NCBI GenBank assembly: GCA_905234755.1
Contig: CAJOIT010000007.1
Location: 50 to 64,049 of the forward strand
From: an uncultured Bacteroidales bacterium
GTDB taxonomy: Bacteria; Bacteroidota; Bacteroidia; Bacteroidales; ML635J-15
Direction: 5' to 3'
Length of the DNA stretch: 64,000 nt
Under the pieces are notes generated by a model. That model saw nothing but the letters and a program-made list of their open reading frames with translations, was not told the origin of the DNA and did no database searches. Position numbers and translations under genes: made by a program. Positions 9,487 to 53,829 of the stretch are shown here, in pieces. The number at the start of each line of letters is the position of its first letter. Position 1 is the stretch's first letter.

Positions 9487-11220
9487 ATGGGTAGGAAGAT
9501 TAAATTCTGTTTGGTTTACAGGGATATGTGGCAGTCTGCCGGCAAATATGTTCCGCGTGTTGACCAGTTGAAGGAGGTTGCTCCGGCAATAATCGAAATG
9601 GGATGTTTCTCGCGTATTGAAACCAATGGTGGTGCATTCGAACAAGTTAACTTGCTTTATGGCGAAAATCCGAATAAGGCTGTCCGCGAGTGGACAAAGC
9701 CTTTCAACGAGGCAGGAATAGAGACAATGATGCTTGAGCGCGCATTGAACGGTTTGCGCATGTATCCTGTGCCTGCCGATGTTCGTCGGTTGATGTACAA
9801 GGTAAAGAAGGCTCAGGGAGTTGATGTTGTACGCTCGTTCTGCGGTCTTAACGACACACGCAACCTTGAGTTGTCGGTAAAGTACGCCAAGGAAGCCGGA
9901 ATGATTTCGCAAGGCGCATTGAGTATCACGCACTCGAAGATTCACACAGTGGAATATTACATGAGTGTGGTTGACAAACTTGTGGAATTCGGTGCTGACG
10001 AAATCGGCCTGAAGGATATGGCTGGTGTTGGTCGTCCTGTAACATTGGGAAAACTCACAAAGGCTATCAAGGATAAGTATCCTCACATAATAGTTCAGTA
10101 TCACGGACATTGCGGACCAGGTTTTTCACCTGCTTCGATGCTCGAAGTTGCTCGCAACGGCGCCGACATCATTGATGTGGCAGTAGAACCGTTGTCATGG
10201 GGAAAGATTCACCCCGATGTAATAACAATCAGGGAAATGCTTTATGATGCTGGTTTCGATGTTCCCGAAATCAACATGAATGCCTACATGAAGGTTCGTA
10301 CCCTCAACCAGAAGTACATGGACGATTTCTTGGGTTATTTCATGGAAATGAAGAACAGGCAGAGTTCGTCATTGCTTGTAAGGTGCGGTCTTCCAGGTGG
10401 AATGATGGGTTCGATGATGTCCGACCTTAAGAGTATGCACAGTGCTATCAATGTTTCGTTGCAGCAGTCGGGCAAGCCAACAGTTTCGATTGATGACCTT
10501 CTGGTTCAACTTTTCGAAGAGGTAGAATATGTATGGCCTAAGCTAGGCTATCCGCCACTGGTAACACCTTTCAGCCAGTATGTCAAGAACATAGCCTTGA
10601 TGAACATATATGCAATGTCGGCTGGTCAGCCTCGCTTCTCGATGATTGACAAGGACAGCTGGAACATGATTCTTGGTCGTATGGGTAAGCTTCCGGGCGA
10701 ACTTGATCCTGAAATTGTAGAACTTGCCAAGTCGAAGGGTTACGAGTTCTTCACAGGCACTCCGCAAAACGAATATCCCGATGCACTCGAATCCTACCGT
10801 CAGGAAATGCAGACTAAAGGCTGGGATTGTGGTCAGGACGATGAAGAATTGTTTGAACTTGCAATGCACGACCGTCAGTATCGCGACTACAAGAGTGGTC
10901 TGGCAAAGCAGCGATTCCATGAGGAACTTGAAGTTGTAAAAAACAAGGAACATAAAGTTATTCAGGTTGAGGACGACAAGGATCCGAAGATTAAGAAAAT
11001 CAAGTCGCCAGAGACTGGCAAGCTGTTGTTTGCTTTCATTTCCGACCAGTACAAGGTTGGCGACCAGATTTCTATTGACGAACAGTTGTTCTATATCGAG
11101 TCGAACACCAACTACGAGGTTGTCATTTCCGAATTTGCCGGAACCATTGGCAAGCTTTACTGCAAGCAGGGCGACTGGGTTCACGAAGGCGATACGATTA
11201 TGACAATCGTTACAGAATAA
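9487..11220 (+). CDS. Oxaloacetate decarboxylase alpha / pyruvate carboxyltransferase-like protein with degenerate C-terminal biotinyl domain
   Basis: 577 aa. It has a divergent carboxyltransferase TIM barrel (YRDMWQS, ETNGGA, LKDMAGVG, QYHGHCGPG). The C-terminal ~70 aa align to a biotinyl/lipoyl hammerhead, but the E-A-M-K-M position reads E-S-N-T-N. Confidence 0.7.
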   Translation: MGRKIKFCLVYRDMWQSAGKYVPRVDQLKEVAPAIIEMGCFSRIETNGGAFEQVNLLYGENPNKAVREWTKPFNEAGIETMMLERALNGLRMYPVPADVRRLMYKVKKAQGVDVVRSFCGLNDTRNLELSVKYAKEAGMISQGALSITHSKIHTVEYYMSVVDKLVEFGADEIGLKDMAGVGRPVTLGKLTKAIKDKYPHIIVQYHGHCGPGFSPASMLEVARNGADIIDVAVEPLSWGKIHPDVITIREMLYDAGFDVPEINMNAYMKVRTLNQKYMDDFLGYFMEMKNRQSSSLLVRCGLPGGMMGSMMSDLKSMHSAINVSLQQSGKPTVSIDDLLVQLFEEVEYVWPKLGYPPLVTPFSQYVKNIALMNIYAMSAGQPRFSMIDKDSWNMILGRMGKLPGELDPEIVELAKSKGYEFFTGTPQNEYPDALESYRQEMQTKGWDCGQDDEELFELAMHDRQYRDYKSGLAKQRFHEELEVVKNKEHKVIQVEDDKDPKIKKIKSPETGKLLFAFISDQYKVGDQISIDEQLFYIESNTNYEVVISEFAGTIGKLYCKQGDWVHEGDTIMTIVTE

Positions 11221-11240: not shown

Positions 11241-11285
11241 GCCGCGGCTACTATTGCAAAAGCGATGGTGGCCGCTTTTGTTTTG
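11241..11285 (+). terminator. Probable terminator after the oadA-like gene
   Basis: gcggctac ... gtggccgc stem (one mismatch) followed by ttttgtttt. Confidence 0.5.
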
Positions 11286-11367
11286 CAAAAGGAAATTGTG
11301 TGGGTCGGTAATTTGAGAAATGCAGTAAGAGAAAGATAAGTTGCGATATTTTATTCCTTTCAAATTC

Positions 11368-11499
11368 GGAATAAGTGGTTATTTTATAGTGCTAAAAAAT
11401 GGAATAAGTGGTAAAATTCACCTCCTCAAAAACGGAATAAGTTGTAATTTTTACCCCTTAAAAAATGGAATAAGTGGTTTTTTGTTTTGCAAAAGCAAA
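11368..11499 (+). repeat. Four direct repeats phased every 33 bp, core GGAATAAGTGGT preceded by an A-tract
   Basis: Cores start at 11368, 11401, 11434 (ggaataagttgt) and 11467, exactly 33 nt apart. The last unit abuts the -33 TTTG and the -7 box TAtcTTTG (11509-11516) of the ATPase gene. Confidence 0.9.
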
Positions 11500-11536
11500 A
11501 GAATGATTTATCTTTGTGGCATAAAATTATTGTAAA

Positions 11537-12904
11537 ATGCTCGAAAGAAAATTTACACAATATTTGGAGGACTTCATAGAGAACGAACCTAATAAAATAC
11601 TGTTAGTCAATGGCGCTAGGCAGATAGGAAAGTCATACATAATACGCTATGTAGGGAAGAAACTTTTTAAGCATTTTGTTGAGATAAACCTCAAGGAAGA
11701 CAAAGAGGGCGAGCAAATTTTTGCCGATGTTCAGACCACAAGCGACTTGTATATGCGGCTAAGCAACTATCATTCAAAGCATTTGGGAGACAAGACGGAC
11801 ACCCTTATCTTCCTTGACGAGATACAAAGCTACCCTCACCTCATGACTATGCTAAAATTCCTTAACGAAGAAGGAAAATACCGCTACATTGCAAGCGGTT
11901 CGCAACTTGGTGTAGCATTGTCGCAAACGCCATCGGTCCCTATCGGCAGCATCACAATAAAACAGATGTATCCGCTTGATTTTGAGGAATTCCTCTGGGC
12001 TACGGGCATTGGAAAAGAATGGATAGACCACATAAGAGAATCGTTCCAGAAGGAAGAAAGTCTGGATAAAAGCACCCACGAGTTGCTGCTTAAGCGATTC
12101 CAGTATTACCTGCTTATTGGCGGTTTGCCCGAAGCCGTTAACAAGTATTTGGAGGACAGAAATATAGTGCGCGTAAGGACAGTTCACAAGGACATCCACG
12201 AACTATATCGCATCGATGCTTCGCAATACGACGAGGAACACAAACTGAAGATTCGCAGGATTTACGACCTGATTCCAAGTAATCTGGAGAACAAGAAGAA
12301 GCGTGTGGTTTATAACAAGATTGAAAACAAGACTGGCAAGCACTTTTCCGACTATGCCGACGAATTTGAATACCTTACCAATTCGGGCGTTGCATTAGAT
12401 GTGTTGGCAATCAGCAATCCGCGTTTCCCCTTGGCGGAATCGGAGCAAAAACGACTTGTAAAATTGTACCTGAACGACATCGGGCTGCTCACTAACCTTC
12501 TTTATGGTCTCAATGTCAATGCAGTGTTGCAGGACATCAGAAGTATAAATCTCGGAACTGTTTATGAATCTGCCGTAGCACAGGAACTTGCAGCCCACCA
12601 GTTCAAACTTCATTATTACGACAACAAGCAAAAAGGCGAAGTTGATTTTCTGATAGACGACTACAATCGGCTTCAGGTATTGCCTTTGGAAATAAAATCG
12701 GGCAAGGACTACACCGAGCATAGTGCGCTGACAAAATTCCTTGAGACGCCCGAATATGGAATCGGCAGGGCAATAGTCTTTTCTAACGAACAGCAAGTTT
12801 ACAAAAAGAAGGGCGTTACCTATATGCCTATCTATTACTGCATGTTCCTTCAAAACTCATCTGACAACGACACTATAATTTTGCCGGAATTGGAATCTGT
12901 TTAG
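11537..12904 (+). CDS. AAA+ ATPase, AAA_14/DUF4143 family
   Basis: 455 aa. It has Walker A NGARQIGKS and Walker B LIFLDEIQ, with the long C-terminal region typical of DUF4143 ATPases. Confidence 0.8.
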   Translation: MLERKFTQYLEDFIENEPNKILLVNGARQIGKSYIIRYVGKKLFKHFVEINLKEDKEGEQIFADVQTTSDLYMRLSNYHSKHLGDKTDTLIFLDEIQSYPHLMTMLKFLNEEGKYRYIASGSQLGVALSQTPSVPIGSITIKQMYPLDFEEFLWATGIGKEWIDHIRESFQKEESLDKSTHELLLKRFQYYLLIGGLPEAVNKYLEDRNIVRVRTVHKDIHELYRIDASQYDEEHKLKIRRIYDLIPSNLENKKKRVVYNKIENKTGKHFSDYADEFEYLTNSGVALDVLAISNPRFPLAESEQKRLVKLYLNDIGLLTNLLYGLNVNAVLQDIRSINLGTVYESAVAQELAAHQFKLHYYDNKQKGEVDFLIDDYNRLQVLPLEIKSGKDYTEHSALTKFLETPEYGIGRAIVFSNEQQVYKKKGVTYMPIYYCMFLQNSSDNDTIILPELESV

Positions 12905-13083
12905 ACGGACTGCTGACCATTAGTATTGGCTCGTTAATCCAGTAAATACAGTTGGGAGGCCATAGGTTGCGATATTATACTCAACTCGCTGTTGAATAAG
13001 GCTGTGGAGTACGCGATGGAGATGTATTGATTTTCTGATAATTGTTTGTATTACAACAATTTGAATAATTTATTACTCTTTCC

Positions 13084-13165
13084 AAAAACGGAATAAGTGG
13101 TAATTTTTACCCCTCAAAAAATGGAATAAGTGTTTTTTTGTTTTGAAAAAGCGTTTATCTATATC
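13084..13165 (+). repeat. Second copy of the last two 33-bp units plus a decayed promoter (duplicate of 11429-11516)
   Basis: aaaaacggaataagtggtaatttttacccctcaaaaaatggaataagtgtttttttgttttgaaaaagc is near-identical to 11429-11495. Cores at 13090 and 13123 are again 33 nt apart. The -7 box is degenerate (tatctata). Confidence 0.85.
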
Positions 13166-13225
13166 CGAACATTATATTGTTTAAAACTAAACTCGCCTTT
13201 TGTTGTGTTTTATTATAATAATAAG

Positions 13226-13233
13226 TATGTTTG
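13226..13233 (+). promoter_or_regulatory. -7 promoter box (TAtgTTTG) for the five-gene operon
   Basis: Exact TAnnTTTG match 25 nt upstream of the ATG at 13258. Confidence 0.5.
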
Positions 13234-13257
13234 CAGTTTGGAATAATTTGCATAGAG

Positions 13258-14349
13258 ATGTCGGATGTGGTAAAAAATAAAAGGCAAGGGAAACTTCCTA
13301 AAATAGAAGTCGTTGATCTCTTTTGCGGGATTGGCGGTCTTAGTTATGGAATGAAGTCAGCTGGTTTTGATATTCGTGCTGGATATGATTTGGATTGGAC
13401 CTGCCAATATGCATACGAAACAAATACAGGAGGAAAGTTTTTTTATAAAGATGTTAATTCTGTGACAGGAGATGAAATAAAAAAACTATATTCAAAAAAG
13501 AAAAATATCATTAGAGTTCTTGCTGGTTGTGCCCCTTGTCAGCCATTTTCTTCGTATGCATTTAAAAACAAGAAAAAGGACGAAAACAAATATAATCTAT
13601 TATATGAATTTGGACGGTTAGTGAAAGAAGTTCATCCAGACATTGTTACAATGGAAAATGTGCCTGCCATTGCTTCTTTTAAATTAAAATCTGTCTTGTC
13701 TGATTTTGTGAACACTTTAAAATCAGAAAATTACGAAGTGTCCTATAAAGTAGTTTACTGTCCTAATTATGGCGTTCCGCAAACGAGAAAGCGCATGGTC
13801 TTATTGGCTTCGAGATTAGGAGAAATTGAGTTGATACCACCAACACATTCAAAAGACAACTACGTAACCGTGAAAGACGCAATCGGGAATCTTCCAGCGT
13901 TAGCAGCAGGAGAAAGTTGTTCTTCCGATCCGTTGCACAGATGTCGAGCCTTATCCCCTTTGAATAAGCAGAGAATGTTAGCAACACCTTATGGTGGAAG
14001 TTGGAGGGATTGGCCGGAAGAATTACTTTTGGAATGCCATAAGAAGGAAGAAGGCAAGAGCTTCGGTAGTGTATATGGACGAATGGTATGGGAGGAACCT
14101 GCGCCGACAATGACAACCCTTTGTACAGGTATTGGTAACGGGCGTTTTGGACACCCAGAACAAAACAGAGCCATCTCTGCTAGAGAAGCAGCATTGTTCC
14201 AGACATTTCCTACATCCTATAAGTTTTTTCCTGATGAGCAGAGTGTTTCTCTGTCAAAAGCATCTCGATATATCGGGAATGCCGTACCGCCCAGATTAGG
14301 CGAAATAATTGCAGAAAGTATAAAACAACATATTAGAACACACAAATAG
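13258..14349 (+). CDS. DNA (cytosine-5)-methyltransferase (MTase 1)
   Basis: m5C MTase motifs are present: I DLFCGIGG, IV PCQPFS, VI ENV, VIII QTRKR, X GNAVPP. The start is moved to ATG 13258 because the track's 13231 start lies inside the promoter box. Confidence 0.9.
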   Translation: MSDVVKNKRQGKLPKIEVVDLFCGIGGLSYGMKSAGFDIRAGYDLDWTCQYAYETNTGGKFFYKDVNSVTGDEIKKLYSKKKNIIRVLAGCAPCQPFSSYAFKNKKKDENKYNLLYEFGRLVKEVHPDIVTMENVPAIASFKLKSVLSDFVNTLKSENYEVSYKVVYCPNYGVPQTRKRMVLLASRLGEIELIPPTHSKDNYVTVKDAIGNLPALAAGESCSSDPLHRCRALSPLNKQRMLATPYGGSWRDWPEELLLECHKKEEGKSFGSVYGRMVWEEPAPTMTTLCTGIGNGRFGHPEQNRAISAREAALFQTFPTSYKFFPDEQSVSLSKASRYIGNAVPPRLGEIIAESIKQHIRTHK

Positions 14350-14351
14350 AA

Positions 14352-16460
14352 ATGGATGACGATCAAGTTTTAAAATGGCGATTTGATGTTAGCACATTCA
14401 GGTTAATTGGGCGGGATTTGATAACAGACCGAGTAACTGCTTTGTTTGAACTAGTGAAGAATTGTTATGATGCAAACGCGTCGGAGGCTACAATCATTTT
14501 TAATAATGTAGGTTTGGACAAAAAAGGAGAATCATCTATCTATATTAAAGACGATGGAATAGGTATGTCTTTTACAGATATCAAAGACAAATGGATGGTA
14601 ATAGGCACATCTAATAAACGTTCCAATCCATATAGCCCAGAGCCGTTTTCCCGGAAATGTGTGGGAGAAAAAGGAATTGGCCGATTTGCAGTAGATAAAT
14701 TAGGAGACAAAGTCAACATTATCACTAAACAAAAAAAAGGAAAACAATGGTTGAATGTTGAAATAGATTGGGAAGCATATTACAAACAGAGTTTTGAGAG
14801 TAATGAAATAAAACTCTTTACTGATATAGAAAACCATTACGAGTATTATGATTCCGAGGATATTAATGAGCATGGAACAACGCTGAAAATAACAAATATT
14901 AGGGAAATTTGGTTAGAAAATGACATAAAGCGCTTTATTGAAGAGGCGGGGAAACTAGTCTCTCCTTTTGCGAACATGAGTTATCCTATGCAAATCAAGG
15001 TTATTGCACCAGAATACGGCATAGAAACAATCGCAACTAAAAACATGGATGATGTTAGCATTGCTACCATCAGTTTTTCACTAGGTTTTGATATCACTTC
15101 TCAAACACAAGACAGTGCCTATTTTGATGAAGAGACAGGAGAAATAAAAATCCGAACTATTCCAATGAAGTCGTTTGGCGGGATTAAAATGAAAGTATAT
15201 TATTTTGATGAAGCCGCTCGTCGACGTTATCGTAAAGAATTTCCTAATAATCAAATAGATGGCGTAAAAATATATCGCGATAGTATTATTACCACTCCAT
15301 TTGCCGAAAATGAGTCTGAGGATGATAAGAAACGTGATGTTTTAGGAATTGACAAACGATTATGGATGAATATCTTTGATCGAGTAAGTACCCGAGAAAT
15401 CATAGGAATTGTTGAAATCACAAAAAAAGACAATCCAATGATCATTGACGCGACAAACAGGCAGGATTTTGTTGACAATGAACAATATCGCGACCTTAAA
15501 GAATTTATCATCACACAATTAGATGCAATTGAAGGTTATAAAAAGTATTCAAGGAAAAAGAAAAGAAAAGAAAACAGCAACACATTAGAATCCGCTGGTC
15601 AAGAGATTCAAAGCTTTATTTCCTCAGTAGAGAATATTGCCGAACAAAACCCTAATCTAAAAGACAGTCTTGCTCCTGTAGTTGAGCAAGCCAAGAAGAC
15701 CGGAAAAGCAGTAAGAACTGCAATTAAAGAAAAGAAAGAAGCGGAAGAAGAGTTTGCGCGAAAAGAGAGTGTTTATATGAGTATTATGTCTTTGCAAGAA
15801 TATGCAATTCATATTACACATGCTGTCCGTACCACATTGAATAAAATCCGTGATAGGGTTGAATATTTTAACATGTTCTATCCAGATCCTACGGAAGAAG
15901 ATATATTTAAGCGTTACGCAAAAGAAATGTATGTGGAATTTTTGAATGTTAATAAAGTGATAGATTATATGTTAAGTTATTCACAATCAAACATTCAACC
16001 CGAAGATATTGAACTTGATGAAACAATTCGCGAAATATTTGTCGAATATACGCCATTGTTCAACTCCAATGGAATCAAAACAGATCTTATTATCCCTGAA
16101 AAGATAATGCTTAGGAACACCCGTCGACAGTTTTTTAGAGATATCTTGCAAAACCTTATTGACAATTCCATTAAAGCCGTAAGAGATGCCGAACAAAAAA
16201 TAATTCGTTGTACGGTATCAGTCGAAAAAGAAGAATTAATAATTCTGTTATCTGATACGGGAAATGGAATCCCACAAGAAAAAAGAACATGGGTTTTTGG
16301 AGTTTATAATACAACCACCCAAGATCAAGGTGGTGCTGGCATAGGTTTATACATTGTAAAAACAAGGGTGGAATCTTTAAAAGGAAAAGTATTTGTAACA
16401 GATAGTGAGTTTGGTGAAATTGGTACAACAATAAGAATCGAATTACCATTTAAAAAATAA
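14352..16460 (+). CDS. Dual-GHKL protein: N-terminal MORC/Hsp90-like ATPase (HATPase_c_3-like) fused to a HisKA-like H-box and a histidine-kinase ATPase
   Basis: 702 aa. N-terminal Bergerat motifs are ELVKNCYDA, DDGIGM and GEKGIGRFA. A lysine/glutamate-rich coiled region follows. The H-box is ITHAVRTTL (His490, codon 15819-15821; compare SHELRTPL). The C-terminal kinase motifs are the N-box NLIDNSIKA, G1 DTGNGIP and G2 GGAGIGLYIV. No TM segments were seen. Confidence 0.7.
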   Translation: MDDDQVLKWRFDVSTFRLIGRDLITDRVTALFELVKNCYDANASEATIIFNNVGLDKKGESSIYIKDDGIGMSFTDIKDKWMVIGTSNKRSNPYSPEPFSRKCVGEKGIGRFAVDKLGDKVNIITKQKKGKQWLNVEIDWEAYYKQSFESNEIKLFTDIENHYEYYDSEDINEHGTTLKITNIREIWLENDIKRFIEEAGKLVSPFANMSYPMQIKVIAPEYGIETIATKNMDDVSIATISFSLGFDITSQTQDSAYFDEETGEIKIRTIPMKSFGGIKMKVYYFDEAARRRYRKEFPNNQIDGVKIYRDSIITTPFAENESEDDKKRDVLGIDKRLWMNIFDRVSTREIIGIVEITKKDNPMIIDATNRQDFVDNEQYRDLKEFIITQLDAIEGYKKYSRKKKRKENSNTLESAGQEIQSFISSVENIAEQNPNLKDSLAPVVEQAKKTGKAVRTAIKEKKEAEEEFARKESVYMSIMSLQEYAIHITHAVRTTLNKIRDRVEYFNMFYPDPTEEDIFKRYAKEMYVEFLNVNKVIDYMLSYSQSNIQPEDIELDETIREIFVEYTPLFNSNGIKTDLIIPEKIMLRNTRRQFFRDILQNLIDNSIKAVRDAEQKIIRCTVSVEKEELIILLSDTGNGIPQEKRTWVFGVYNTTTQDQGGAGIGLYIVKTRVESLKGKVFVTDSEFGEIGTTIRIELPFKK

Positions 16461-22030: not shown

Positions 22031-23068
22031 ATGACTAATGAGAATAGAAACATATTGCTAAAATTGCTTGAGCAACATCAAGAGTCAGGCATATCGGAGC
22101 AGATAGACTACAACAAATTCTATTTGTATTCCATTATCACGCATTCTACGGCTATAGAAGGCTCAACAGTTACTGAAGTTGAAGCTATTTTGCTTTTCGA
22201 CGAAGGTATTACAAGTAGCAAGCGCACAGTGGTCGAGCAGATGATGAACCTTGATTTAAAGGCAGCATACGAATATGGGATGCAATGGATTTTGCGTCAT
22301 GAACCAATTACGGTCGAATGGCTTGTCCTGCTTGCATCAAAAGTTATGGCTCGCACCGGTAGTGAGTATCATTCTGCAAGTGGAGACTTTTCTGCTGCAA
22401 AAGGTGAGTTGCGCAAACTGAATGTTACTGCAGGATTTGGCGGCAAGTCGTATATGTCGTATCAGAAAGTGCCAGCTCGTCTTGAAGCTTTTTGCGAAGA
22501 ATTGAACAGACGGAGAAAGGCAATTGACGTGTCGGATGTGAGCGCTATATACGACCTTAGTTTCTGGGCTCATTACGAATTGGTGACCATTCATCCGTGG
22601 GCAGATGGAAATGGCAGGATGAGTCGTTTGCTTATGAACCTGCTCCAGATTGAGTTTGGCGTTTTGCCGACCAAAGTGTTAAAAGAAGACAAGGAGGCAT
22701 ACATACAGGCACTAGTGGATACTCGCGAAAACGACGACATAAATATTTTTCTCGATTGTATGTCTCGCCTTCACATCGCTCATCTTCAGAGCGATATAAA
22801 GCAATACGAGGTGGCTTTGCAAGATGAAGTGGACAGAAAAGGTGGACAGAAAAAGCAAAAGGTGGACAGAAAAAGTGGACAGAAAACACGCGATGCCATT
22901 ATCGCTCTCATTTCTAGCAATCCGCACATTACTACAACCCAAATGTCTGAGTCGCTTGGAATCAACCGAAGTGCACTTTCAAAGCATATCAAGCGTATGC
23001 AGGAAGATGGTATCATCCGTCGTGTTGGACCCGACAAAGGCGGTTTCTGGGAGGTGATTAGCGATTGA
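22031..23068 (+). CDS. Fic/Fido-domain protein with C-terminal winged-helix domain
   Basis: It carries the Fic motif HPWADGNGRMSRLL (HxFx[DE]GNGR). The C-terminal HTH-like region is ITTTQMSESLGINRSALSKHIKRMQEDGII. Confidence 0.85.
   Translation: MTNENRNILLKLLEQHQESGISEQIDYNKFYLYSIITHSTAIEGSTVTEVEAILLFDEGITSSKRTVVEQMMNLDLKAAYEYGMQWILRHEPITVEWLVLLASKVMARTGSEYHSASGDFSAAKGELRKLNVTAGFGGKSYMSYQKVPARLEAFCEELNRRRKAIDVSDVSAIYDLSFWAHYELVTIHPWADGNGRMSRLLMNLLQIEFGVLPTKVLKEDKEAYIQALVDTRENDDINIFLDCMSRLHIAHLQSDIKQYEVALQDEVDRKGGQKKQKVDRKSGQKTRDAIIALISSNPHITTTQMSESLGINRSALSKHIKRMQEDGIIRRVGPDKGGFWEVISD
22829..22886 (+). repeat. Four copies of GTGGACAGAAAA inside the Fic linker
   Basis: Copies lie at 22829, 22842, 22862 and 22875. 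They encode VDRKGGQKKQKVDRKSGQK. Confidence 0.9.
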
Positions 23069-23348: not shown

Positions 23349-24545
23349 CTAATACATCATTCCTAAAAGCCAAAGCGGAAGTTTTTTCCCTATGGGAGTT
23401 TCGATATTGTCGGCCAATATGTAGGAGTTTGGAATGTCGGCAATCTGAGAAAAATCCTTGTCGATACCGCCTACTTCTACCACCCACTTGCCATCAATCC
23501 TAAAGTCGCCATTTTTGTTGTATTCAACTGTATGTCTGGCAGACAACTGGTTCACAGCAAACGCTTCCCTAATAGTTCCTATATTGCTCTTGGATGTTGC
23601 AAGTGCATATATAAGATTGGTGTTGTCAAGATAAATCTTGTCGGGCTTTTGGAGTTTGCCAACCGATTTTGCATCGTAATATAATTGCTGTATTATGTGC
23701 GCATCGGCAAGATTTCTAAGGTAGGCGATAATAGTGTTTCTGTTTATGCCAGTATATACCGATAGTTTGCTTATGTCAACGTCAAATGGCACAGTTGTCG
23801 ATAAAATGTAAAGCAATGCCTTTATTTTCCGAATATTAGACGGATCAACCTTGCAGATTTGTGTAAGTTCCACATCAATAGTGAAATTGACCACTTGCTC
23901 TATTATCTGGTAGTAAGTTGACTTGTTTTTGCTGTAGAACGGATAGTAGCCGAATTTTAGGTATTCGTTGAAATATTCTATCGGTCTGCACTTCCCGTTC
24001 ACTTCGGTGCAGATGTTCTGTGGATTGCAAAGTATTGTCTCCAAAGATGCTGGCATTATCCTTATCTCCTTGTATAACCCGAGGTATTCCCTAAACGACA
24101 ATCCTTGCATTTCGTACGACACGCACCTCCGCGACAGGTCGGCATCGCCCATAAGTAGGTTAAGCAACGATGATGCACTAAGCACTATCCGCATTTCGGG
24201 ATAGAGGTCGTATATTTCCTTTATTTCCTTGCTCCAATTTTCATATTTGTGAGCCTCGTCAAGGAAAAGGTGCTTTCCGCCTTGCTTGTAGAAATCGCTG
24301 GCTAACGAAAGTAAACTGTGCGAAGCAAAGTACATCGTATCCAAAGAGCAATACAGGACTTCTCTGCTGTATGGCTGATAGTTGAGTTTAATGTATTGCA
24401 GCATAAGTGTGGTTTTGCCGACACCCCTCGGTCCCCGCAGTGCTATCAGATGCGCATCCCAGTCAATGTCGTCCATTATGCTTCTCACAAAGTTAGTCTT
24501 TGTGTTTCTAATCAATATGTCGTGTTTCTCGAAAAGTGTTTCCAT
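23349..24545 (-). CDS. AAA+ ATPase, AAA_14/DUF4143 family
   Basis: 398 aa from METLFEKHD (ATG complement at 24543-24545). It has Walker A GPRGVGKTT and Walker B HLFLDEAH. The track's longer start (24623) would translate the promoter and repeat array. Confidence 0.8.
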   Translation of the reverse strand: METLFEKHDILIRNTKTNFVRSIMDDIDWDAHLIALRGPRGVGKTTLMLQYIKLNYQPYSREVLYCSLDTMYFASHSLLSLASDFYKQGGKHLFLDEAHKYENWSKEIKEIYDLYPEMRIVLSASSLLNLLMGDADLSRRCVSYEMQGLSFREYLGLYKEIRIMPASLETILCNPQNICTEVNGKCRPIEYFNEYLKFGYYPFYSKNKSTYYQIIEQVVNFTIDVELTQICKVDPSNIRKIKALLYILSTTVPFDVDISKLSVYTGINRNTIIAYLRNLADAHIIQQLYYDAKSVGKLQKPDKIYLDNTNLIYALATSKSNIGTIREAFAVNQLSARHTVEYNKNGDFRIDGKWVVEVGGIDKDFSQIADIPNSYILADNIETPIGKKLPLWLLGMMY

Positions 24546-24581
24546 AAATAAATTTTTTGCAAAGATATAAATGCTTTTTAT

Positions 24582-24657
24582 AAATAGCAAATATTTATCA
24601 AAAATAGTATTTGCAAATAGCAAAATCTATTCGGAAATGCTATTTATAAATAGCAAA
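24582..24657. repeat. Three direct repeats phased every 33 bp, core AAATAGCAAA
   Basis: Cores lie at 24582, 24615 and 24648, exactly 33 nt apart. The outer two sit in 22-nt near-identical units (atgcttttta/atgctatttataaatagcaaat). The array is directly upstream of the minus-strand -7 box TAtcTTTG (complement of 24560-24567). Confidence 0.85.
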
Positions 24658-24879
24658 TTAGTTATATTAAACCACCATAAATAACGGATATGCAAGACTT
24701 TACATCTCAACGGACATAAAAACACTACCCAAATAATACCCTTTTACAATTTGTGGGAGTCGTTGTGCGCAACGACCCTACAAATGACCCTTCAAACCCC
24801 TTCCCAAAATATTTTCACTTTTCTTTCACCCATCCCAAATAATAAAATTAAATTTGTCCCCACATTTTTAATTTCGAGT

Positions 24880-52152: not shown

Positions 52153-52243
52153 AATTTCTAAATTTTATGAGGCAAAGATAATGTGTTAAAATGCCAAAAG
52201 AAGGCAGTGCCTAAATTTTTTTCGCCAGTCACAGTACCATTAA

Positions 52244-52373
52244 ATATGCATTCACCGAAAAATAGTATCGTTTGTTTTTCGGTGAACAAGAAAAAATATG
52301 CTTTCACCGAAAAATAGTCAAGTTTATTTTTCGGTTAACGAGAAAAATTGTATCTTTGCCGAAAAATAAACGA
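52244..52373 (+). repeat. 52-bp tandem units, each an inverted repeat TTCACCGAAAAATA-N-TTTTTCGGTGAA, upstream of ATPase 3
   Basis: Unit 1 (52244-52295) and unit 2 (52296-52347) are near-identical. A third partial unit (from 52348, gccgaaaaataaacg) overlaps the -7 box TAtcTTTG (52351-52358). Confidence 0.85.
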
Positions 52374-52383
52374 GGATTTAGTA

Positions 52384-53829
52384 ATGAAATTAGTTGGTCG
52401 AAAAGAGGAAATAAAACTTCTAGAAAGCTTATATTCAAGCGGCAACGCAGAATTTGTTGCCATGTACGGACGCAGGCGAGTTGGAAAGACTTTTTTGCTC
52501 GGTGAACTTTTTAGGTCGCGGATGACATTTTGGCACACAGGATTACCACCATACGACAGGGATAAAACATATCTTCTTCGTGACCAGCTTCAGGCGTTTC
52601 ATTATTCGCTTGAAGAATATGGATTAAAAGGGTATCAGTGTCCAACATCGTGGCTTGAAGCTTTCCACCAGCTCACAATTCTATTGAAACAAAAAGACAA
52701 TGGAAGTAGGCAGGTTGTTTTTATTGACGAGTTGCCGTGGATGGATACTGCAAGGTCAAGATTTATCCCAGCTTTCGAACAATTTTGGAACGGATGGGCA
52801 TCGCGTAGAAGCAACATTATGCTTATCGTATGCGGATCTGCAACATCGTGGATGACAGACAACCTCATAAATAACAAAGGCGGACTTTATAACCGGCTTA
52901 CTCGTGAGATAAAACTAAGTCCTTTTAAACTAAATGAATGCGAGGATTTTTTGAAAGCGAAGGGCGTCGCAATGAGCCGCTACGAAATTACACAGGCATA
53001 TATGATTCTTGGTGGTATTCCGCACTATTTTAATTTCTTTGAGAAAGGTAACAGCTTGGCTCAAAGCATCGACAAAATGTTTTTTGCGGAGAATGCGCCT
53101 TTGCGTTTCGAATATCAAAGACTTTTCGGCTCGTTGTTTACTAGCCCAAACCTTCCGATGAAGATAGTAGAACTTCTTGCTACAAAACGGCAAGGGTTTT
53201 CTCGCAGGGAAATACTAGAAAAAGTTGGCGTTCAAGATAGTGGAAGTTTTTCTGACATTATGAATGCATTGCAATCTAGCGACTTAATTGTACAATACAA
53301 ACCCTTTGGCGAGTCTAAACGCAAGGAAAAATTCAAGTTGGTGGACAATTTTTGCTTATTCAATCTAAAATTTGCCGATGCCATAAAGAAAAACTCAGCA
53401 CAATATTGGCAAAAAAACTACAATTCGTCAAAACTAAACGTATGGCGTGGATTTGCTTTTGAGGAAGTTTGTTTTGTTCATATACAGCAGATAAAAAAAG
53501 CATTAGGATTTTCAAGTGTAAGCAGTACGCAGTCTGGATGGATATTACAAGGGAGTGAGAATGCCTCGGGTACTCAGATAGATATGATTATCGAACGTAG
53601 TGATAATGTTGTAAACCTTTGTGAAATAAAGTATTACGGTAAACAATTCCTCATTGATAAATCCTACGATGAAATTCTCCGCAATCGCCTACAGACACTC
53701 ATCGACCGACTTCCAGGTAAGAAAACAGTTCATCTTACTATGATAACGACTTTCGGGCTATCTCCCAACGAATACAGCGGTCAGATACAATCGCTTGTTA
53801 CCCTTGATGACTTGTTCAAGGACGAGTAA
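52384..53829 (+). CDS. ATPase, archaeal-ATPase (ATPase_2)/DUF234 family
   Basis: 481 aa from MKLVGRKEEIKLLESLY...MYGRRRVGKTFLL (Walker A), with Walker B VVFIDELPW and a DUF234-like C-terminus. Confidence 0.8.
   Translation: MKLVGRKEEIKLLESLYSSGNAEFVAMYGRRRVGKTFLLGELFRSRMTFWHTGLPPYDRDKTYLLRDQLQAFHYSLEEYGLKGYQCPTSWLEAFHQLTILLKQKDNGSRQVVFIDELPWMDTARSRFIPAFEQFWNGWASRRSNIMLIVCGSATSWMTDNLINNKGGLYNRLTREIKLSPFKLNECEDFLKAKGVAMSRYEITQAYMILGGIPHYFNFFEKGNSLAQSIDKMFFAENAPLRFEYQRLFGSLFTSPNLPMKIVELLATKRQGFSRREILEKVGVQDSGSFSDIMNALQSSDLIVQYKPFGESKRKEKFKLVDNFCLFNLKFADAIKKNSAQYWQKNYNSSKLNVWRGFAFEEVCFVHIQQIKKALGFSSVSSTQSGWILQGSENASGTQIDMIIERSDNVVNLCEIKYYGKQFLIDKSYDEILRNRLQTLIDRLPGKKTVHLTMITTFGLSPNEYSGQIQSLVTLDDLFKDE

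Follow-up and report, generated by a model that had tools for sequence, protein, structure and literature searches.

A conserved 33-bp repeat array upstream of a Bacteroidales PDC-S01 ATPase-nuclease gene, a probable private self-operator

The DNA analysed here (the window) is a 64,000-nt stretch from an uncultured Bacteroidales bacterium (assembly GCA_905234755.1, contig CAJOIT010000007.1, positions 50 to 64,049 of the forward strand). It encodes an ATPase-nuclease of 455 amino acids (aa) that is assigned to the PADLOC family PDC-S01 and combines an AAA_14 with a DUF4143 domain (11537-12904, plus strand). Upstream of this gene, an array of four 12-nt cores is found at steps of 33 bp (11368-11478, plus strand). 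This four-core array is a real cis-element, conserved and apparently undescribed. Sequence comparisons suggest that it is probably a private self-operator of the PDC-S01 ATPase-nuclease, with one protomer per 33-bp unit and autorepression of the gene.

The core GGAATAAGTGGT is located at 11368-11379, 11401-11412 and 11467-11478, and the variant GGAATAAGTTGT at 11434-11445; the general form is GGAATAAGT[G/T]GT. The exact 33-bp steps between all four cores, already described in an earlier, sequence-only reading of this DNA, are confirmed by the sequence and by Tandem Repeats Finder (period 33, 3.4 copies, score 125 for 11368-11478). The same reading placed an A-tract ahead of each core. A tract of A5-6 is present ahead of copies 2-4, but copy 1 is preceded by 'ttcaaattc' instead. 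Bacteroidetes promoters follow the consensus -33 TTTG / -7 TAnnTTTG. Compared with this consensus, the segment 11486-11516 (plus strand) is a promoter of the Bacteroidetes type: the last array unit leads into TTTG (11486-11489), a 19-nt spacer, TATCTTTG (11509-11516) and the start codon at 11537; the T-rich sequence on the 3' side of this unit extends into the -33 region. The array thus runs into the -33/-7 elements of the DUF4143 gene, as had been proposed. A sigma-70 promoter scan is uninformative for promoters of this type. In the 3.3-Mb genome, the 12-mer GGAATAAGTGGT has four copies, every one at the ATPase locus, and no second pair of GGAATAAGT at a 33-bp step is found elsewhere.

To characterize the conservation of the array, species-representative genomes were scanned for orthologues of the gene. 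The resulting 80 loci (69-88% protein identity, labelled L below) come mostly from rumen and gut Bacteroidales; the sampling of loci covered Bacteroidota. The word (G/A)GAATAAGT is kept in nearly all of them, in two to five copies with a mode of three. The core-to-core spacing is exactly 33 bp in 151 of 168 intervals and within 32-34 bp in 160, and in 60 of 74 loci a distance of 41-43 nt separates the start of the proximal core from the -7 box. When the upstream regions are aligned on the -7 box alone, without use of the word, conservation peaks at -108, -75 and -42, and the DNA between the peaks is unconstrained. The A5 tract (-7 to -2) and a T-rich tract (+13 to +17) around each core are conserved as well. 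Each 33-bp unit is thereby divided into a conserved stretch of ~25 bp, which may be read as a predicted footprint, and ~8 free linker bases. The copy number is four in all 10 strain variants. Homologues from the same genus with 37-65% identity keep the 33-bp phasing and share the 5' half of the word (TGGAAAA), and the 3' half is clade-specific; phasing is likewise retained, with a different 3' half, in related clades with 37-70% identity. The search of related genomes for phased 33-bp repeats that the sequence-only reading had proposed shows that core, spacing and promoter register are kept while linkers and neighbours change. Separately, five orthologues with 70-79% identity and typical arrays (L082, L083, L086, L090, L109) are located on contigs binned outside Bacteroidota, namely with Eggerthellaceae, Eubacterium, Ruminococcus lactaris, Firmicutes and a Methanomethylophilaceae archaeon. 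These are either mis-binned contigs or cases of recent cross-phylum transfer of the module.

Repeats at the promoter are a general property of this gene family in the genome. A tblastn search yields 14 ATPase paralogues and a Pfam search 31 AAA_14 genes over the cut-off, of which ~19 are PDC-S01-like and ~12 encode proteins of roughly 480 aa. Repeats of their own are found on the promoters of all 14 tblastn paralogues and, judged by eye, of nearly all 31 AAA_14-type genes. The main layouts are 33-bp direct repeats (for example TTGGAAAAGTGTCAA, TTGCAAAAAGTTACTAA and TTTGGATTTGTTACAAA); palindromes at 33 bp and repeats at 23 or 38 bp also occur, and the ~12 genes of roughly 480 aa show the PDC-S27-type layout of inverted-repeat pairs at 51-55 bp. 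Two of these arrays lie within the window. The second PDC-S01 paralogue (gene 23349-24545, minus strand) is preceded by three palindromic sites at 33 bp (24569-24658, minus strand) with the cores AAATAGCAAA at 24582, 24615 and 24648 and units such as GCTATTTATAAATAGC, the last of which abuts the -7 box. The earlier statement that a second DUF4143 ATPase has the same phasing with a different core is therefore correct. The gene 52384-53829, which matches Pfam ATPase_2 and PADLOC PDC-S27, is preceded by two 52-bp units of the inverted repeats TCACCGAAAAA / TTTTTCGGTGA that end at the -7 box (52242-52347, plus strand).

The ATPase repeats exceed chance. Among the tandem repeats of the genome, period 33 forms a spike with 14 arrays as opposed to 1-3 for neighbouring periods, and 10 of the 14 immediately precede AAA_14 genes. 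With a threshold of 30 on the lag-repeat score, 13 of 29 ATPase upstream regions qualify versus 11 of 980 other upstream regions, and several of these 11 are those very intergenic regions, counted from the side of the divergent gene. A genome-wide search for phased 33-bp repeats upstream of AAA_14/DUF4143 genes had been suggested before and returns the expected enrichment. The 33-bp layout is thus real and enriched, but it is just one of several, next to single palindromes, 23-bp repeats and the 52-bp inverted pairs of PDC-S27. Exact 11-mer counts across the 31 genes are too noisy as a measure of privacy, with A/T-rich words recurring by chance and some top words belonging to a dispersed hairpin repeat; the privacy of words is taken here from the 12-mer result for the array at 11368-11478 alone. 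The occurrence of apparently private promoter repeats at nearly every AAA_14-type gene supports the earlier proposal that these are paralogue-specific operator arrays.

Related classes follow the same principle with other words. For the A2-type array (24569-24658 in the window), TGCTATTTAnAAATAGCA sites are found at 33 bp in orthologues with 88-93% identity (L152-L155), and TGCT-N10-AGCA variants occur further out. In the ~385-aa subfamily, which has the best match to the DUF4143 profile, a sample across the phylum shows one private palindrome of 31-41 bp, mostly near the start codon (17 of 29 loci versus 3 of 28 downstream controls). The last units of sister classes cover the -7 box or the leader, and on a Parabacteroides plasmid two sites are located 66 bp apart with the -7 box between them. 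One A2-type paralogue (G000:C9:183028-184221) has an in-frame TAA stop, yet its upstream repeats are retained; it is probably a pseudogene.

The protein encoded next to the array was characterized by Pfam, PADLOC, alignment and an AlphaFold2 (AF2) model. PF13173 (AAA_14) matches the N-terminal part with 85.9 bits and PF13635 (DUF4143) the C-terminal part with 84 bits. The PADLOC profile PDLC04792 covers residues 1-452 (E = 7e-185, 613 bits), which identifies a full-length PDC-S01 member. By profile, domain content and its single-gene organization, the ATPase belongs with COG1373 / PDC-S01. In an alignment of 79 sequences, the residues of Walker A (G26...G31-K32) and Walker B (D94-E95) are invariant. 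The nuclease motif comprises E344, D370 and E385-x-K387, of which D370 is invariant, E385-x-K387 nearly invariant and E344 one or the other. DUF4143 is listed as an ATPase-fused PD-(D/E)xK nuclease fold of unknown function (PMC3424549). The AF2 model has a mean predicted local distance difference test score (pLDDT) of 79.5. Its best PDB matches in Foldseek are subunits of the origin recognition complex (ORC), Cdc6 and archaeal Orc1 (4xgc_E, 7tjj_E, 8s0e_A, 2qby_A, 2v1u_A), with modest scores (E 6e-5 to 5e-4, whole-chain template modelling score ~0.3); the DNA-bound structures 2qby and 2v1u are among them. A PDB search by sequence returned four chance-level matches only (E 0.37-0.99), and an NCBIfam search returned no match. 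Residues 236-312 show a helix-helix-helix-wing pattern as in a winged helix, and a winged helix at residues ~236-312, in the middle of the DUF4143 region, is accordingly predicted. Its putative recognition helix, K268-L280 (K268-HFSDYADEFEYL), follows the pattern K-x-FSDYADEFEYL, where x is residue 269.

Residue 269 covaries with the core. This position is H269 in the window protein and varies among relatives, while the rest of the recognition helix is nearly invariant, as is GGAATAAGT. Within the GGAATAAGT clade, residue 269 tracks core bases 10-12: among 455 columns, column 269 has the highest mutual information with these bases (1.56 of 2.04 bits), and no other column discriminates better in either of two separate contrasts. 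Scored as the word after GGAATAA, H269 is paired with GTGGT in 14 of 18 loci and T269 with GTGG[G/A/C] in 25 of 37; S269 with GTGG[G/A/C] (5/5), D269 with GTGAC (5/5) and R269 with GTGT (6/6) are paired throughout. In a tree built without column 269, the combination of R and GTGT arose twice (L098-L103 and L059), and D with GTGAC occurs in two well-supported clades. R is also present in the more distant classes E (GGAAAAGTGTAG) and H (TTGGAAAAGTGTCA), which add the same residue-word pairing in two further lineages. The sequence-only reading had suggested that the sites might be bound by the C-terminal domain of the ATPase itself. Reading by the own protein is supported by this covariation, but the sites are probably read by the winged helix midway through DUF4143, the extreme C-terminus being the PD-(D/E)xK nuclease-like domain. 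The sequence-based case that the protein's own helix reads the core is good but not conclusive.

On this basis, a mechanism can be proposed in which a single molecule of the product of the adjacent downstream gene would occupy each 33-bp unit. Within a unit, the invariant GGAATAAGT would be read by the recognition helix K268-HFSDYADEFEYL and the next three bases by H269, and the A5 tract before and the T-rich tract after the core would complete a footprint of ~25 bp. As the sites are arranged head-to-tail and 33 bp correspond to about three helical turns, the protomers would be placed on about the same face of the DNA, where neighbours may touch through their AAA+ domains and thus bind cooperatively. 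The promoter-proximal protomer would lie over the -33 element, and a filled array would then shut its own promoter. With each paralogue having its own word, this negative feedback would be private to each paralogue. Physical binding, cooperativity, ATP dependence and repression are what we infer from the arrangement of the sequences. The placement fits occlusion, with the T-rich flank of the last unit running into the -33 element. Since the position of the array relative to the promoter differs between classes, repression is favoured over activation.

Several observations weigh against this mechanism. The covariation comprises few independent events; the informative tree pairs all agree but are too few for a sign test. 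Q269 occurs with both TTCC and GTGAC words, so a strict code does not exist. When 12 word classes were scanned broadly, class-specific columns were not concentrated in the winged-helix region, and a specificity signal emerges only when the GGAATAAGT clade is analysed by itself in finer detail. The AF2 model is poor (pLDDT <50) at residues 239-268, just before the recognition helix. The cores of the window array are located upstream of the -33 element and not on the -7 box, an arrangement that is also compatible with activation.

The array, promoter and gene change their genomic neighbourhood together. Clustering of the sequences that flank the orthologues gives 57 unrelated groups upstream and 58 downstream (71 and 68 loci, respectively), and near-identical strain copies are found in three different chromosomal contexts. 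This indicates that array, promoter and gene travel as one self-contained module, and, as neighbouring genes are not conserved, that no neighbour gene can be the reader of the sites. In the window, the ATPase gene is also followed by a partial copy of its own upstream region. A 3'-end fragment of a DUF2461 gene (12977-13030, plus strand), part of a direct duplication that flanks the ATPase gene, has been carried along with the module. It is followed by a duplicated pre-array with two cores (13090-13101 and 13123-13132) in the same orientation as the upstream array and a partial -33 region (13031-13150, plus strand). The cores at 13090 and 13123 are a strain-specific duplication scar, for which a function is possible but not required. 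Downstream cores are absent from the other 79 orthologue loci, and terminal direct repeats were rejected as a general feature of the module, the downstream copies being confined to this lineage among the 80 loci.

The strain variants document how this scar is built. In L111, L112 and L114 (99% identical protein), the gene is flanked by a 192-bp repeat that comprises the DUF2461 3' end together with a pre-array of 60 nt and three cores. The repeat of L115-L120 is a 59-nt DUF2461 fragment alone, with no downstream array. The intact DUF2461 gene of L111 ends with the sequence found at 12977-13030 in the window and is located just upstream of the array. The L111 and L115 variants have a longer pre-array sequence than the window. 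The first unit of the window's upstream array corresponds to the first unit of the downstream array of L111, and it is preceded by a GTGCGATATT-type sequence, specifically GTTGCGATATT, that is otherwise found after the gene. Both features indicate that the arrays have recombined. GTTGCGATATT (11340-11350, plus strand) has a second copy in the 3' flank of the ATPase gene (12966-12976) and is taken as the recombination junction between tandem module copies. Genes for a C5 DNA methylase and a GHKL (HATPase_c_3) protein come next after the ATPase in all three strain types (window 11537-16460; L111-L120). The genes upstream of the near-identical ATPase differ, namely a carboxylase in the window, DUF2461 in L111 and PHP/HATPase_c in L115. 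In this lineage the ATPase therefore rides on a larger methylase island, and the ATPase-methylase-GHKL unit has the appearance of a mobile defence island's left end.

Arrays are also found without their genes. An orphan array at C11:169393-169482 carries three class-G words and no ATPase gene, and this class occurs with a gene in other species of the genus. Another at C3:156048-156172 adjoins a 29-aa C-terminal ATPase remnant. In L016 (G010:C40, 1270-1340), a complete module of another class (GGAAAAGTGTAG x4 + ATPase) is immediately preceded by a remnant of two GGAATAAGTGG copies that includes the beginning of its -33 region, beside a carbonic anhydrase-like gene, which suggests module replacement at one spot. 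Orphan and remnant arrays indicate that arrays outlive their genes and are prone to recombination; the orphan 33-bp arrays look like scars of lost modules. Further 33-bp arrays without an intact ATPase gene were noticed at G000:C1:357797-357914 and G000:C3:337497-337591. In L018 (G012:C3), arrays of the same orientation are present on either side of the gene, with five ATAGGAAAACGCAGTTTTT units upstream and three downstream.

Several other explanations of the array were weighed. The closest to autorepression assumes that the ATPase-bound sites act positively, with an oligomer upstream of the -33 element that recruits RNA polymerase in the manner of STAND-type or enhancer-type ATPase activators, as positive autoregulation or as a signal-dependent switch. 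The proximal core of the window starts 42 nt before the -7 box, just upstream of -33, which is a common activator position. A fixed activator geometry, however, does not fit the sister classes with units on the -7 box or in the leader before the ATG, nor the overlap of the conserved T-rich flank of the proximal unit with the -33 motif, and activation is considered unlikely. A mobile single-gene element, with the array as its end or target and an ATPase-nuclease that binds and nicks the array so that homing-like recombination moves, duplicates or deletes the module, is distinctly unlikely, although it might coexist with autoregulation. The ~57 unrelated contexts without an integrase or transposase inside the module, the direct array duplications flanking the gene in the window, L111/L112/L114 and L018, the orphan arrays, the GGAATAAGTGG remnant beside another class in L016 and the conserved nuclease motif would all agree with such an element. 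On the other hand, 79 of 80 orthologue loci have no downstream copies, the duplication includes an unrelated DUF2461 fragment and looks like ordinary recombination, target-site duplications or defined ends were not found, and in this lineage the gene travels with the larger methylase island.

An array of iterons at a replication origin, with the ORC/Cdc6-like ATPase as initiator and the locus as a remnant or module of an integrated replicon, has very little probability. The fold does match ORC, Cdc6 and Orc1, and direct repeats beside the gene resemble Rep genes with their iterons and archaeal orc1 genes beside origins. However, ~19-31 such genes are present per 3.3-Mb chromosome, and the family matches just 59 of 72,556 plasmid and 13 of 50,697 phage records; on an inspected plasmid, the family gene has toxin-antitoxin genes as neighbours, and typing assigns the record its own replicon cluster. 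Moreover, the array keeps a fixed register with a promoter, the protein carries a nuclease domain, and neither a separate AT-rich unwinding element (11286-11536) nor DnaA boxes were noticed, though no systematic search was made. A functionless minisatellite generated by slippage would account for tandem units that vary from two to five copies between species, but is highly improbable: cores and tracts are conserved while linkers diverge, 90% of the intervals are exact, the promoter register is fixed, the copy number is stable at four in 10 of 10 strain variants, unrelated words have the same geometry at other paralogues, and residue 269 covaries with the core. Equally improbable is the remaining group of explanations, in which the sites are read by another host regulator or form an RNA element or a CRISPR-like array. 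Apart from the superficial look of repeats interspersed with linkers, nothing specific favours them. Another regulator is at odds with words private to each paralogue and with the lack of conserved neighbour genes. An RNA element was rejected (fold z = +0.49, two weak Rfam matches far below gathering scores), as was a CRISPR array, which needs repeats of 23-47 nt, unique spacers and cas genes, whereas the window has 12-nt cores and 21-nt linkers with a shared A/T pattern.

The proposed self-operator can be compared with known pairs of DNA-binding proteins and adjacent sites. In P1 (incC-repA-incA), F, R6K and pPS10, iterons are located beside the Rep gene and overlap its promoter, and Rep binds the iterons and represses its own gene. 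The window shares the geometry of tandem direct repeats next to the gene, with a word private to each replicon or paralogue, and, as in P1, has arrays on both sides of the gene (four cores upstream and two downstream); binding of the repeats by the product of the adjacent gene is here suggested by covariation only. Rep proteins have tandem winged helices and no AAA+ or nuclease domain, and their iterons of ~17-22 bp at a spacing of roughly 22 bp are part of an origin. In contrast, the window has a period of 33 bp, a protein with AAA+ and nuclease domains, dozens of modules per chromosome and no sign of replication. Orc1/Cdc6 proteins resemble the ATPase in the AAA+ module followed by a winged helix (2qby, 2v1u) and in the position of the gene beside its sites. 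One Orc1 protomer contacts a long stretch of DNA via winged helix and AAA+ domain, which would fit the ~25-bp conserved stretch per unit in the window. Origin boxes flank an unwinding element and are typically inverted, and Orc1 has no nuclease domain; the window units, in contrast, are head-to-tail and abut a promoter in fixed register, and sequence similarity to Orc1 is undetectable. DnaA is another AAA+ DNA-binding protein that represses its own promoter via several phased sites, but it has a different DNA-binding domain and 9-bp boxes shared across the genome, whereas the window sites are private to one gene. The pair of PDC-S01 protein and array most likely works like iteron/Rep or Orc1/origin-box pairs and belongs to neither family.

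As defined in PADLOC, PDC-S01 matches the window protein, a full-length member with AAA_14 and DUF4143 and no fixed partner genes. In published reports (PMC12988326, PMC13356809), PDC-S01 ranks fourth in abundance among the 'defences' of prokaryotes, and no other single locus is as frequent in rumen genomes. Most such defence candidates await validation, and none is reported for PDC-S01 (PMC12988326). The PDC-S01 literature treats the protein family only, unlike the window locus, where repeats accompany the gene. Across the literature on DUF4143, PDC-S01 and PDC-S27, no description of repeats, operators or DNA specificity was found, in agreement with the earlier remark that no regulatory logic had been described for this ATPase family. 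No activity, ligand or DNA target is known for PDC-S01. If the repeats are the protein's own sites, each family member has its recognition sequence written beside it, which would give an immediate experimental handle. Such pairing would also account for the coexistence of 19-31 paralogues in a single cell free of cross-talk, and would provide a natural set of orthogonal protein-operator pairs. A 33-bp unit with one ORC-like protomer would further be a simple bacterial model for the assembly of initiator-type AAA+ proteins on DNA.

A more far-reaching idea, to which we assign a low probability, is that PDC-S01 proteins are sequence-specific, ORC-like ATPase-nucleases with an evolvable code (residue 269 to bases 10-12), that the array spells the target of the enzyme, and that this recognition is also used off the promoter. 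If true, the protein might find and cut invading DNA with phased words, or cut its own array and thereby cause duplication, loss and spread of the module, and genomes would hold dozens of private DNA-targeting enzymes whose specificities are readable from sequence.

The upstream neighbour of the array in the window is the carboxylase gene (9487-11220), which matches Pfam PYC_OADA/Biotin_lipoyl. Its intrinsic terminator (11244-11285, plus strand) consists of a 14-pair stem (11244-11275) followed by a T-run and forms the left limit of the intergenic region. Elsewhere in the genome, a dispersed palindromic element (...AGACGCAAAATTTTGCGTCT...) is located upstream of G000:C11:78588, C5:30805 and C8:101135. 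Its word AGACGCAAAAT has 35 occurrences in the genome, and the element is probably a repetitive extragenic palindromic (REP)-like or terminator-like repeat unrelated to the operator arrays. Within the 3' part of a Fic/winged-helix gene of the window (22031-23068), 13-nt and 20-nt tandem repeats (AAAAGGTGGACAGAAAAAGC) are found at 22827-22886.

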